From Candidatus Eiseniibacteriota bacterium (GTDB lineage: Bacteria; Eisenbacteria; RBG-16-71-46), in contig JBBRLX010000002.1 of NCBI GenBank assembly GCA_038231135.1, forward strand, positions 64,001 to 128,000: a stretch of DNA of 64,000 bases, in the 5' to 3' direction. Below the pieces are notes generated by a model. It saw only the letters and a program-made list of their open reading frames with translations. It was not told the DNA's origin and ran no database searches. Position numbers and translations under genes: made by a program. Below are positions 2,900 to 54,002 of the stretch, piece by piece; positions within the stretch are counted from its first letter, which is position 1, and each line of letters opens with the position of its first letter.

Positions 2900-4855
2900 T
2901 CCGACCGGCCACGACCCCAGGCGGCGTCCCGCCAGGTCCCACAACGCAAGCGTGGCGGGAGCCGAGCTGGTGAGGTCGAACGCGATCTTCGGCTCGCCGT
3001 TCACGGGATTGGTCTCGGGCCCCTCCAGGCGAAACGCGAGGTCGCTGCCAACGAGCAGCGAGACGCTCGACACCACGGTGCGCATGCTACCCGTCACGAG
3101 TTGGAGCGAGTAGGTGTAGCGTTCGCCCTCAATGACGTCACGGTCCTCGAGCGTGATGCGGCCGGTGCCGTCGGGCAGAGCGGTCGCGAGCTGGACCCAG
3201 TCGCCTGCCTGGTGGCGGCGTTCGACCTGGAAATGGCCCGGCAAGCCGGGATCGACGAGCCAGGTGATGCGGGCCGTGCCCGACGACGCGTCCGCGGCGA
3301 CCAGTGACGCCAGCGTCGCGGTGGTCCCGTTGGCGGGTACGTGCGTGCTGTAGATCTGTTGAGGATCGACCCGGCCGTCGCCCCAGGCCACGATCGCGCC
3401 ACCGTTACCATCGGCCACGATCGCCGGAAACTCCTGCTGGCCCGCGGCGGCACAGGCTGGAAATCCACCGATGGGCCAATGCCCCGCCAGCGTTCCCGTC
3501 GCGGTCACGCGCTGGACATAGATGTCGTCGTCGGTGCCGTTGCGCCCGTCCTGCCAGGCCAGCAGCAATCCGCCATGTCCATCGGGAGCGATCGCGATGT
3601 GCCGCTGGTCCCCCGGCGCCGTACAGATCGGAAGTCCATCCGCCGGCCAACCGGGAGCGAGCGTTCCATCGCCCCTCACGTGTTGCGCGTAGATGTCGCC
3701 GGTGCCGGTTCCGGTGCTGTCTCGATAGTCCACCCAGGCCACGAAAGCGCCGCCCGCACCATCGGTCGCGACCGAGGTAATTCCGACAGGAGTTCCGTAG
3801 TAATTCAGCGTTCCGCCCGGCGCGCTCGGATGCGAGCACACGAGCAGCCCGTCGGCTGGCCAGCCCGCGGCCGTGCTGTCGTTCGATAGGTAATGCTGTC
3901 CGTAGATCTGATTCGTCCTCGTGTCGTGCCAGAACACCAACGCACCACCGCTGCCGTCGGAGGCGATTCCGGGGTCTCCGCCGATGCCCCTGAACGGCCG
4001 GGTGATGGTGATGTTGTCACCCACCTGGACGTGGACGCCGAATGCTCCCCCGTTGGGCTCCGGCAATTCCGCATACAGGACGAACATGCCACGGCCGCTG
4101 TCGGGGACGATGCCAATCGCCCATTGGGAGGTATTGGGAACGTTGACGGCGATACCACCGGACCATCCGGTGTCTGGCGCGCCGCTGGTGGCCAGGCTCA
4201 TGGCGACGAGATCTTCGTGAGGAGCCCGATGCGTATGAGTCATCGCAAGTAATACGCCGCCATCGGGGCTCGTCGTGAGCGCCGGCGCGGTGTCGCCGGA
4301 TACGCCCTGCACAGCCGCCGGGGCGTCGCCGAGGCGGGCTGCCTCGACCAAGGGCTCTCCATAGAAGTCGATGCCCCCGGTCGGCCATCCCGTGGCATCG
4401 GTTCCCTGGCCGGTCATGTGATTCAGGACGAGACCGAGACCGGGGTTGAACGGATCATGCATCGAGGCCGCGAGATAGGCCCCACCCTGCCGGTCCGCCG
4501 CCATGACCGCGTCTTCGTCCATGGAGCAAATGAAGCGTCCCGATTCCGGCCAGCCGGGCCACACCTCGCCGGCAGGCGTTCGATGTTGCGCGAACTGGCC
4601 TGCCCGATTTCCACCCTCGATCCAGGAATAGATCGCGCCGCCGGCGCCGTCGGGCACCATCACGACCTGCACTTGTCGTCCGAGCGATGGGGCGACGGGG
4701 GCTCCGTTGTCCACCCATGTGGACGCGCGCAAGCTGAATGCGGAGCTGCTGGGAGCGATCGATGCGACGATCGTGAGCGTGACAATCAGCGTCGCGGGGA
4801 GAAGAGCGGGCGCGAAACACGCATGCCGGAAACGTGACTGCGGAACCGAGGCCAT
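2774..4855 (-). CDS. Secreted repeat (putative 8-bladed beta-propeller) protein with T9SS-like C-terminal domain
   Basis: Signal peptide; 8 repeats of DGxGGhhhhW...IYxQH...GWPxxG; C-terminal NP...LWDLAGRRL...GLYWVRL...TARLCVLR; start placed at MASVPQ. Confidence 0.8.
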   Translation of the reverse strand: MASVPQSRFRHACFAPALLPATLIVTLTIVASIAPSSSAFSLRASTWVDNGAPVAPSLGRQVQVVMVPDGAGGAIYSWIEGGNRAGQFAQHRTPAGEVWPGWPESGRFICSMDEDAVMAADRQGGAYLAASMHDPFNPGLGLVLNHMTGQGTDATGWPTGGIDFYGEPLVEAARLGDAPAAVQGVSGDTAPALTTSPDGGVLLAMTHTHRAPHEDLVAMSLATSGAPDTGWSGGIAVNVPNTSQWAIGIVPDSGRGMFVLYAELPEPNGGAFGVHVQVGDNITITRPFRGIGGDPGIASDGSGGALVFWHDTRTNQIYGQHYLSNDSTAAGWPADGLLVCSHPSAPGGTLNYYGTPVGITSVATDGAGGAFVAWVDYRDSTGTGTGDIYAQHVRGDGTLAPGWPADGLPICTAPGDQRHIAIAPDGHGGLLLAWQDGRNGTDDDIYVQRVTATGTLAGHWPIGGFPACAAAGQQEFPAIVADGNGGAIVAWGDGRVDPQQIYSTHVPANGTTATLASLVAADASSGTARITWLVDPGLPGHFQVERRHQAGDWVQLATALPDGTGRITLEDRDVIEGERYTYSLQLVTGSMRTVVSSVSLLVGSDLAFRLEGPETNPVNGEPKIAFDLTSSAPATLALWDLAGRRLGSWPVGSLGRGHHVVGLEPDRALAPGLYWVRLERGVERQTARLCVLR

Positions 4856-49819: not shown

Positions 49820-50659
49820 ATGAGCATGCGTGGCACCTTCGCAATCGTGACGTTGGCTCTTGGCGCCCTGCTGGCGTCAGGCAGCGCCGCGCATGCCGAA
49901 GTTGCGGGCTCGGGATTCGAGCACGCCGGGCTGTTGTCCAACCACGGCCGGCTCGAAGTTCGCGCGCATCACCCGCTCAAGCTCACCCCGGCGCTCCGCG
50001 CCGCGACGCAGCGCGATGACCGGCGCCACGGGCGCCACCGCCTGCATCGCCACCGCTACGCCGCCGCCCGTCACGAGCTGACCCGGTCGGCCGCCAACGG
50101 CATCCCGGCGGCTCCGGCGCCGACGCATTCGCACTCGCTGCCCGCCCGGGTTCCGGTCGCGCATCAGCTGCGCGGCCACGACGGTGGCCCCAGGTCCTCG
50201 CCGCGCCATGCCGCGGCGACGGCGTGGGTCGATCCCACCGTGTACCAGCCGATGGGCATCGCGATGTACGAAGCCTCCCTGCCGGTCGATCGTGTGGAGC
50301 TGTGGCGCATCACCAGCCGCGGGCCCCCAGCCGCCGCCCTCGATGGCGCCCTGCTTCCCTCCGAATTCGCGCAGCGCCCACTAGCAGCCTTCCCCGGCGC
50401 GCGCCTCCACACCTTCCTACCCTGTTCGACCCGGCATGAGACCCTGGCCTTTGGACCCGGCTCCGCCTCGTCCGTTGCGGACCTGACCGCCCGGTCCGCC
50501 ACCGCCTCGCGTGAGCGCGCCGTCTCCGCCACGCGCCTGAAGTTCTCGAATGTTCCCCAACCCTGTTCCCTCGAAGCTCGTTACGAGCTTCACTGCGCGC
50601 CGGCTGAGGGCCCGGCCGCGGACGTCCCCGTGCCCTCATGCAGTGGAGGCAGTTCATGA
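49820..50659 (+). CDS. Hypothetical secreted His/Arg-rich protein with internal RGPP motif (possible leader/arrest peptide)
   Basis: Signal peptide ending AHA; RGPP encoded at 50318-50329; stop overlaps next ATG (ATGA); codon usage is atypical in the 3' part. Confidence 0.5.
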   Translation: MSMRGTFAIVTLALGALLASGSAAHAEVAGSGFEHAGLLSNHGRLEVRAHHPLKLTPALRAATQRDDRRHGRHRLHRHRYAAARHELTRSAANGIPAAPAPTHSHSLPARVPVAHQLRGHDGGPRSSPRHAAATAWVDPTVYQPMGIAMYEASLPVDRVELWRITSRGPPAAALDGALLPSEFAQRPLAAFPGARLHTFLPCSTRHETLAFGPGSASSVADLTARSATASRERAVSATRLKFSNVPQPCSLEARYELHCAPAEGPAADVPVPSCSGGSS

Positions 50660-51611: not shown

Positions 51612-51696
51612 CGAACACGCTGGCGCCGCGTGCGCCGGTTCCACGGCCGCTGACAGCGGTCGTAAGGAACCCGGAGTTCGAGCGCCGGACTGGATT

Positions 51697-51918
51697 GCAC
51701 GCTCCGTATACCGACTTCGTGGTGACGAGGGGTCCCGCGAGGCACGGGTATGGAGCGTGCGTAAGCTGAAAAAATAGCACGCTCCGGCATACCGGCTTCG
51801 TGGTGACGAGGGGTCCCGTGGAGTACGGGTACGGAGCGTGCGTGAGTTGGGAATGCACGTTTTGTCCTACCGGTTTCGTGGTGACGAGGGGTCCCGCGGG
51901 GCAGGAGACAGAGCGTGC
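51697..51918 (+). repeat. Three tandem ~64-nt structured repeats with an invariant 22-nt core
   Basis: Units 51697-51760, 51777-51841, 51855-51918; core ttcgtggtgacgaggggtcccg at 51716, 51797, 51875; each unit bounded by gcacg...cgtgc inverted arms; U6 at 51925-51930. Confidence 0.9.
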
Positions 51919-51947
51919 TTCCCGTTTTTTGGGCGTGGCGCCGGCCG

Positions 51948-54002
51948 CTACTTCAGCAGCTCGACCTTCGTGATGCGGTCGCCCTGGACGATCGCGCGCA
52001 CCACGTCCATGCCGCGCGTCACACGCGCGAAGATCGTGTACTTGCCGTTCAGGTGCGGCTGGGGCGAGTGGGTGATGAACCACTGGCTGCCGCCGGTGTC
52101 CTTGCCCGACAGCGCCATGCCGACCATGCCGGGCTCGTACCGCAGCCGGTTGTACTCGCAGCGGATCGTGTAGCCCGGCCCCCCGGACCCCGTGCCGGTG
52201 GGGTCGCCGTCCTGGATCACGAAGTTCGGCACCACGCGATGGACCGCCCGGCCGTCGAAATAGCCGCGCGCGGCGAGCCGGGCGAAGTTCTTGACCGTCT
52301 GCACCGCCGCGTCGCGGGCGAACGCCCACTCGATGTCGCCCTTCGTGGTGTGGAGCACGGCCCCCCGCCACGGGGACGGGTCCTCGAACCCGGCGTCATA
52401 GCTGGCGGCGGGCGGCGGCGCGGGATGCGCGTGCTCGACGCTGTCGGCGAATGCCGCGCCCGCGAGCTGCTTGAGCGCGTCGCGGATCGCGATGCGGGCA
52501 TCGGCGTCGGGATCGTGCACGTGCGCCTCGTAAACGCGGGCGAGGTCCGGAATCACCGCCTTGTCGCCGATCTCGCCGAGCGCCGACGCCGCGGATGCGG
52601 CATAGAGCACCGAGCTGTCGGCGAGGCCCGCCCGCAACGTGGGCAGGGCGTCCGCGGCCTTGAGCGTGCCGAGCGCCTCGGCGGCGGTCATGCGTTCGAA
52701 CAGCGGCCGCCCGGGCGCCGTGCGCTCGAGCAGCAGCGGCGTCGCGCGGGCGGCCGGCAGCTGGCCCAGCGCCTGGAGCACTGCGACGCGGGTGTAGATC
52801 GACGGATCGTCGAGCAGCGGCTTGACCGCCGAGATGGCGATGACGCCGGCATGCCCGATCAGTGCGCGCGCCACCGCGCCGCGCGTGGCGGCGTCGGGAT
52901 CGGCGAGCCGGCCGGCGAGTGAATCCACCGCGGCCCCGCGCAGCGTGGTGTCGGCCGCCGTCCACACGAACCGCGCCGCCAGCACCCCCGCCGCCGTGAC
53001 CCGGACATGGGGATCCGCGTGGCCGAGCGCCTTCACCAGGTCGGGCAGGCACGCCTCGCAGGTGGAATCGCCGATCAGCTCGAGCCCGCGCAGCGCGTTC
53101 ACCACCACCGCCGATTCCCTGTCGTCCAGCATCGCGAGCAGGGCCGCGGTGCCGCGCGGAGACTTCTCGCGGCCGATCGTGCGCGCTGCATAGGCGCGCG
53201 ACAGCCAGTCTGCGTCGCGGGTGTGCGTCATCATCGCCGGGACCACCCGATCGGGTGCCGGAATCTTCTCCAGCGCGAACAGCACGCGCCAGCGCACCCC
53301 GGCGTCGGGATCGCGGTGGTGCGCGAGCAGCGCGTCGAGCGCCGTGGAATCGGCCAGCCGCCACAGCGCCACCGCCGCCTCGCCGCGCAGCGCCGCCGAG
53401 CGGTCGCCGAGGAACGCGGCCACGCCCCGGGTGGCGGCGTGGTCCCCGAGCTTGCCGAGTGCTTCGATTGCGAGCTGCCGCAGCGCGGGCGTTCCGGTGG
53501 CCAGCACGGCTTCGAGCGCGGGGCGAGCCGAGCGCTGGCCGATCTGGCCGAGCGCGAACACCGCCTCCTCCCGCACCGCCGGCGTCGGGTCGCGCAGCAA
53601 CGGCAGCAGGCCGGTCACCGATGTCGAATCCTGCAGCCGTCCCACCGCGAGTGCGGCGCGGGCGCGCACCACGGCGTCCCTGGCGCGGAGCTCGGGCGCG
53701 AGCACTTCGGTCCATGGCCGGCGCTGATCCTCGGCGATCGCGATCGCGCGCCACGCCGCCGCCCGGGCCGTGGTAGCGGCCGTCCGGGCGCGGGCCGCCG
53801 CGGGATGCGTGGCGGCCGGCCGAGTGGACGCGGTGGTGGCCCGGCGGGCAGGCGCGGCGGCGGCACCGGCGGTCCTGGTGGCCGCGGACGTACCCGACGC
53901 CCCAGCGGCACCCGCGGCCGTCACGGATCCCGGCAACCCCGCCACGCACAGCGCCACGGCGACCAGCCCGGCTGCGAGTTCCGCGCGGCCGCGCGTGCTC
54001 AC
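51948..54002 (-). CDS. Secreted HEAT-repeat protein with C-terminal cyclophilin-type PPIase
   Basis: GTG start overlaps upstream stop (GTGA); VRxxAxxALG HEAT repeats; HRVVPNFVIQDGDPTGTGSGGPG, DTGGSQWFI, HLNGKYTIF. Confidence 0.88.
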   Translation of the reverse strand: MSTRGRAELAAGLVAVALCVAGLPGSVTAAGAAGASGTSAATRTAGAAAAPARRATTASTRPAATHPAAARARTAATTARAAAWRAIAIAEDQRRPWTEVLAPELRARDAVVRARAALAVGRLQDSTSVTGLLPLLRDPTPAVREEAVFALGQIGQRSARPALEAVLATGTPALRQLAIEALGKLGDHAATRGVAAFLGDRSAALRGEAAVALWRLADSTALDALLAHHRDPDAGVRWRVLFALEKIPAPDRVVPAMMTHTRDADWLSRAYAARTIGREKSPRGTAALLAMLDDRESAVVVNALRGLELIGDSTCEACLPDLVKALGHADPHVRVTAAGVLAARFVWTAADTTLRGAAVDSLAGRLADPDAATRGAVARALIGHAGVIAISAVKPLLDDPSIYTRVAVLQALGQLPAARATPLLLERTAPGRPLFERMTAAEALGTLKAADALPTLRAGLADSSVLYAASAASALGEIGDKAVIPDLARVYEAHVHDPDADARIAIRDALKQLAGAAFADSVEHAHPAPPPAASYDAGFEDPSPWRGAVLHTTKGDIEWAFARDAAVQTVKNFARLAARGYFDGRAVHRVVPNFVIQDGDPTGTGSGGPGYTIRCEYNRLRYEPGMVGMALSGKDTGGSQWFITHSPQPHLNGKYTIFARVTRGMDVVRAIVQGDRITKVELLK

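Follow-up and report, generated by a model that had tools for sequence, protein, structure and literature searches.

An undescribed family of tandem RNA hairpins behind small helix-hairpin-helix genes in Eisenbacteria, and its possible role as a protein-binding decoy

Introduction

What is the role of a short stretch of DNA in which one structured unit of about 64 nt is written three times in a row, behind two small genes and facing a convergent one? The locus lies in a 64,000-nt stretch of a Candidatus Eiseniibacteriota genome (contig JBBRLX010000002.1, positions 64,001 to 128,000), which we refer to as the window; the genome itself (G000) comprises 4.09 Mb at 69% GC and is 93% complete. A preliminary description, made from the letters alone, had proposed a multimeric structured RNA outside the known families or, alternatively, a REP/MITE-like element. 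In the literature searched, apart from motif catalogues in supplements, we found no description of it under Eisenbacteria noncoding RNA or RNA motifs, and no account of such a locus under comEA with tandem hairpins, sarcin-ricin decoys, non-canonical CsrA sites or UTR-derived sRNA with an arrest peptide.

Results

A single array of three units

The three tandem units and their invariant 22-nt core were found as described, with core spacings of 81 and 78 nt and linkers of 13-16 nt (Table 1); with up to 3 mismatches allowed, the core matched three times in the window and never in 100 shuffles. Every sampled word of the region was also present in two DNA sequencing runs, either of which may be the source of the assembly; no RNA run was among those listed as containing it, which speaks neither for nor against transcription. 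No second copy was found in the G000 assembly by mismatch search, BLAST or covariance model, and of 1502 sites in a loose apex scan of this genome 34 passed, none of which looked unit-like by eye outside the array. The loop was not over-represented as an uptake-type word (8 observed, 7.3 expected). A low-complexity array of GC-rich repeats of about 15 nt was seen elsewhere in the genome (G000:C11:102700-103000). In searches of Rfam 15, which the preliminary description had suggested, the best score over the array was for nrdJ (18.6 bits against a gathering threshold of 40.3, E 2.8), so that no family, ribozyme families of Rfam included, was matched there; the homologous units described below gave no match either. 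No tRNA was found in the window and no sigma-70 promoter between 50400 and 52200.

The hairpin ahead of the array and the U6 tract behind it, both previously remarked upon, are present, and the former is unconserved in homologs and skipped in one sequencing-run contig. The U6 tract is likely to be the tail of an intrinsic terminator; a consensus terminator scan made no call there, and three metagenome loci (L041, L056, L058) likewise have U-rich tails behind their last unit.

Table 1. Features of the locus, with positions counted in the window
Feature	Position	Strand	Remarks
Leader ORF	49826..50659	+	hydrophobic N terminus; RGPP at 50318-50329, then C-rich stretch; overlaps start of first HhH gene
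First small HhH_3 protein, 144 aa	50656..51090	+	signal-peptide-like N terminus (by eye)
Second small HhH_3 protein, 129 aa	51222..51611	+	signal-peptide-like N terminus (by eye)
Upstream hairpin	51637..51671	+	present in window; outside the conserved element
Unit 1	51697..51760	+	long bulged hairpin (predicted); apex C-(GAGGG)-G at 51726-51732; z -6.1
Linker 1	51761..51776	+	A6 at 51769-51774; on the minus strand, U tract behind a hairpin
Unit 2	51777..51841	+	long bulged hairpin (predicted); apex 51807-51813; z -4.5
Unit 3	51850..51922	+	core unit 51855-51918, stem lengthened by GGAA/UUCC; apex 51885-51891; z -4.3
U6 tract	51925..51930	+	after last unit; T6 in DNA
HEAT-repeat/cyclophilin gene	51948..53948	-	convergent; context; start provisional

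Each unit is predicted to form one long unbranched hairpin

At minimum energy each unit was predicted to fold as RNA into a single unbranched hairpin of 25-27 pairs with bulges, in which UUCGUGG is paired to a variable CCGYGRR. These folds were more stable than those of shuffled sequences (z in Table 1), and all three units folded better on the plus than on the minus strand, the strand preference put forward earlier. Among all 27 units assembled below, the sense strand folded better in 26, with 78 G-U pairs against 4 A-C mismatches, a difference to be read with the caveat that any G-rich strand folds better than its own complement.

The preliminary description had correctly observed that the closing stems change in sequence while pairing is kept, and had drawn within them a three-way junction with an inner YUUCGU/ACGAGG helix and a possible UACC-GGUG pairing. 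On an alignment of seven units (the three of the window and four from L041, L056 and L058), the long hairpin had 98% of cells paired with 3 two-sided pairs, a value as high as this being reached in 0 of 500 shuffles. The inner helix of the junction was 76% paired with zero two-sided changes, 2 of its 6 pairs being broken in 4 of the 7 units, and exactly where it is broken the long hairpin shows a G-C/A-U swap. As the homologs are broken in the inner helix but paired in the long hairpin, they decide between the two folds; the junction was also 4.6-14.3 kcal/mol costlier in all seven units. Neither the junction nor the UACC-GGUG pairing was supported as the main fold. Branched folds were obtained with DNA parameters for unit 2, in the form drawn earlier, and for two homologs. 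In one soil-run contig (X7), standard pairs take the place of one A.C mismatch and of one G-U pair in the long hairpin, and two other pairs are broken.

A second branched fold (YACCG/YGGUG with CCGUG/CACGG) was 95.7% paired, lacked two-sided changes within the helices peculiar to it and cost 4.9-19.1 kcal/mol more; it could still be a folding intermediate. A stem enclosing the whole array was inconsistent among homologs. One long, bulged, unbranched hairpin per unit therefore folds best of the models compared, this fold and the plus strand as the RNA strand being predictions.

Related units share position and apex

Searches for the exact core in collections of genomes, viruses and metagenomes gave no match, nor did plasmids and phages; none of 18 loci from a looser scan was real, and the window-type core was absent from all 205 other genomes examined in the phylum. 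Window-type covariance models, applied to 60 and 88 other genomes with only 79 and 54 candidates scored in each, recovered no kin, their matches in L034 (G026), L035-L038 and L068 being weak and judged to be chance, and a 13-base pattern was too short to inform. A loose pattern run on metagenome collections gave 21 loci, of which three were real (L041, L056 and L058, with 4 units), all directly behind the same HhH gene. As the models had missed kin in other genomes, the wider family was found through synteny. The resulting set comprises 27 units in 18 loci, with 1-3 copies per locus directly 3' of a gene for a putatively secreted HhH protein, drawn from 3 metagenome contigs and 15 genomes of 5 genera (g1, g2 with 11 genomes, g4, g20 and g21), which are non-independent since 11 of the 15 belong to one genus; it consists of 16 sense-strand loci and two loci found later.

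The constant part of these units is the apex C-(GWGGG)-G, so that the 22-nt core, taken earlier as the conserved feature, is not retained across genera beyond its apex. GWGGG is present in 27/27 units, the seven bases CGWGGGG being invariant by construction as this motif defined the set, and the pair beneath the closing C-G is A-U in 7, G-C in 16 and A.C in 4. Between the window and the metagenome contigs, DNA identity is about 71% for the HhH genes and 50-71% at four-fold sites, and it averages 83% for the units, whose apex is invariant. Contigs from soil runs X4, X5, X6 and X7 (those of the first two looking like one and the same) match parts of the array with 80-95% identity.

We surveyed the region 3' of the HhH gene at 60 loci (the window, 3 contigs and 56 from kin). 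CGWGGGG stood on a hairpin within 330 nt past the HhH stop in sense in 16/60 loci and in antisense in 1, with 1-9 in 20 shuffles, a count which is partly circular as the motif was picked post hoc. In these 16 the hairpin lies 41-114 nt behind the stop. The unit was absent in the other 44/60, and is thus dispensable.

Nineteen units carry GUGGG; 8/22 of their pairs had two-sided changes, with 0/500 shuffles as high, in a test on 12 of the 19 chosen since they are alignable and in which relatedness alone can beat the shuffle control. The covariance-model search suggested in the preliminary description recovered no other copy in the genome and no kin in other genomes, which came by synteny instead. 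Stems of the window and GUGGG types align poorly. Both types share position, length and apex, which suggest a common origin, and usually also a bulge or mismatch 1-3 pairs below the loop. A 15-base GUGGG apex scan gave 18 matches in 12/206 genomes, 14 at the HhH locus and 4 elsewhere, against 15 control matches by our count.

Some further features of these loci were noted. The same apex occurs on hairpins antisense to flanking genes in L159 (position 1501), L163 (position 1501) and L005, within chance counts; such antisense sites lie behind a dehydrogenase-like gene in G069 and between frr- and uppS-like genes in G075 (both judged from translations), and that in L005 (G016) is inverted at the HhH locus. 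The spot behind the last unit takes insertions, with an HNH-type gene in L041 (1622-2560) and a different extra gene in L056 (1692-2222), both convergent and directly adjacent. In L015 (G004) a 27-nt direct repeat, distinct from the hairpin and present twice, stands behind it and reads on the other strand as the end of a short hydrophobic peptide.

The units follow a probable arrest-peptide operon

The two genes upstream, previously called ComEA-like, encode proteins that match Pfam HHH_3 above its cut-off and score far under the cut-off of the comEA model, so that the name is justified at domain level only. The unannotated leader ORF ahead of them had no Pfam or NCBIfam match. An ORF with RGPP or RAPP precedes the HhH gene in 42/62 loci by a strict pattern, some of the misses having short flanks; the motif is usually followed, after 64-111 codons, by a stop close to the start of the next gene, and the stretch after the motif has 39-51% C and 24-33% G. 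Arrest-peptide leaders as presented in PMC12992588 have RGPP/RAPP with a C-rich stretch, which the HhH-locus leaders match, and the Rho-attenuation model outlined for CruR in PMC9426467 fits the layout, so that the leader is likely, from its sequence, to encode an arrest peptide. As in operons such as CruR-bfrG, an exported-type leader with the motif and a stretch richer in C than G precedes a cargo; the locus differs in the distance from motif to stop in most loci and in a cargo of HhH gene plus RNA hairpin. The main text of PMC12992588 mentions neither 'ComEA' nor 'helix-hairpin-helix'.

In G065 and G070, from two sub-lineages, a RAPP leader and the hairpin are kept with no HhH gene between them. 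The HhH protein is apparently dispensable in cis, although the gene may simply have been deleted there not long ago, the hairpin remaining by chance. The leader-like ORF of G075 and G076 stops short of the motif, and the stretch fetched behind it contains neither an HhH gene nor a hairpin. With two cases each, both patterns are suggestive only. In G001, of the same genus, the whole block between a TPR-bearing gene and the cyclophilin gene is gone.

Comparison with known systems

CRISPR arrays alternate short repeats and unique spacers about 25-45 nt long, integron attC sites have RYYYAAC...GTTRRRY ends with one site per cassette gene, and type III toxin-antitoxin RNAs are repeats upstream of a co-oriented toxin gene. 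Here units are 64 nt with 13-16-nt linkers, the attC ends are absent with no genes between units, and the next gene is convergent. The earlier view of a plus-strand structured RNA, neither attC nor CRISPR, was supported. The sarcin-ricin motif (GAGA tetraloop with AGUA/GA bulged-G) was absent when compared with the genome's own 23S. That 23S gene (L081:1501-5503, G000:C10) measures 4003 nt against a 2925-position model, and its insertion is probably an intron with a homing endonuclease; a 210-aa ORF (3603-4235) has what we take to be a LAGLIDADG-like motif and no NCBIfam match.

The array is most like decoys of the CsrB/RsmZ type as set out in PMC4005645, with several stem-loops in a row and C-G-closed loops of 5 nt that are rich in purines and vary at the second base. 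It differs in a loop of GWGGG (27/27 units) instead of A(N)GGA, in stems of about 21-29 bp instead of short ones, in 1-3 copies within an mRNA 3' end, and in a presence in only part of the CsrA-bearing genomes. The core bases of A(N)GGA are not replaceable according to the same source and both A are G here, so that a CsrB-like working is possible and membership is not indicated. Of nine GGA between 51612 and 51947, eight are predicted to be paired at least in part. CsrA itself, which requires the GGA that the loop lacks, is an unlikely partner; its gene is found in 83/89 genomes of the family (in G000 at L080, G000:C1:164849-165007) and does not track the hairpin, and FliW was not found in G000 at 93% completeness. 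As in the 3'-UTR-derived sRNAs MicL and SdhX, in the accounts consulted, a structured segment between stop and terminator could be released, with the difference that the array has tandem long hairpins and no single-stranded seed.

Discussion

The array belongs to a real, undescribed RNA hairpin family whose sequence, position, conservation, compensated stems and copy number of 1-3 are direct observations. Its function we infer. A fixed loop on a freely changing stem, repeated in tandem, has the look of a protein-binding site, and a protein-binding site is therefore what we propose. Our preferred reading, held tentatively and a little short of even confidence, is a protein-binding decoy at the 3' end of an mRNA, with a CsrB-like layout without GGA. 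The stem would hold up the C-(GWGGG)-G loop for an RNA-binding protein and added copies of the unit would be added sites. The array would be co-transcribed with the leader-HhH operon, as is suggested by one run contig in which the first unit begins only about 12 nt after the stop codon, its expression would be controlled by ribosome stalling at RGPP, and it may survive as a stable 3' fragment of the mRNA.

The main rival to the decoy, unlikely in our judgement but the most serious of the alternatives, is that the units are a cis-acting 3' cap whose long stems would stop 3'-5' exonucleases and terminate transcription between the convergent genes, the loop being kept as a stable fold or as a site for a factor acting only on its own mRNA. 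U tails follow the last unit in four window-type loci, where it doubles as a terminator-like stem, the A6 of linker 1 gives a terminator-like site on the minus strand, and many unit-less kin have a plain GC hairpin at the same spot, which the base of the unit resembles in L125 and L128. Terminators and barriers, however, need no fixed loop, and in 6/18 loci (L146-L149, L151 and L184, by reading) the last unit has another long hairpin behind it, so that the unit need not be the terminator; it is also retained where the HhH gene is missing. An extension of the decoy reading, to which we give a slightly lower probability than to such a cap, is that the hairpin RNA and not the HhH protein is a true output of the arrest switch, a stall at RGPP leading to read-through and release of a decoy RNA whose GWGGG loops would titrate a protein with an undescribed loop code, which would explain why leader and hairpin are kept in two lineages after loss of HhH.

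It is improbable that the G-rich loop is instead a seed for a C-rich RNA, such as the rut-like stretch after RGPP in its own leader, giving attenuation feedback. The longest complement between apex and own leader averaged 5.75 nt, compared with 3.7-4.0 for shuffles and 2.9 for leaders of loci without the hairpin; the observed mean was reached in 0/300 shuffles of one kind and in 3, 10 and 6 of 400 in others, with matches of 10-11 nt in L135, L144 and L184. Yet 4/16 loci have no match, positions are unconserved, 17/400 shuffles reach the value when drawn by lineage group (leaders of other groups giving 4.4), and a 5-nt loop on a very stable stem makes a short seed, so that this statistical support is weak and comes with no conserved site. 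An origin as a locally amplified hairpin acting in DNA (REP, MITE, attC-like or a transposon end) is very improbable and is largely refuted. REP/BIME elements with RAYT are imperfect palindromes in tandem in intergenic 3' regions, and the units share with such elements their terminal inverted arms and tandem copies; the extra genes in L041 and L056, the antisense apex sites and a single Y1 transposase-like gene in the genome also fit. The array is nonetheless longer than these, confined to one locus in G000, with no linked transposase and no copies flanking a RAYT/Y1 gene, and 5 genomes from genus g2 gave no sign of dispersal (16 matches, 25 in the control); its G-U bias is strongly to one strand, and DNA folds were about half as stable and inconsistent. 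The flanks of the Y1 gene (G000:C11:108721-109062), which stands directly after a lexA-like gene (judged from translation) and is possibly domesticated, are single-copy and unlike the unit. Least credible is that the apex mimics the 23S sarcin-ricin loop as a decoy for a ribotoxin or elongation factor. In four metagenome units 11/13 apex bases match the genome's own loop in register, a chance of about 1e-5 per fixed position, but 66/600 random 13-mers reach 11/13 somewhere in the rRNA locus, the window units are one base short, and 19 GUGGG-type units have no resemblance. Certain adenines define the sarcin-ricin motif, and those are changed here.

The array thus brings to light an uncatalogued family of structured RNA, for which the fold has been corrected and a conserved loop defined, from a lineage for which we found no RNA biology in the literature, although its narrow distribution limits the weight it can bear. 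If the decoy reading is true, the family would point to an RNA-binding specificity other than GGA, and if the link to the leader is true, an arrest peptide would control a non-coding RNA and not only a protein gene.
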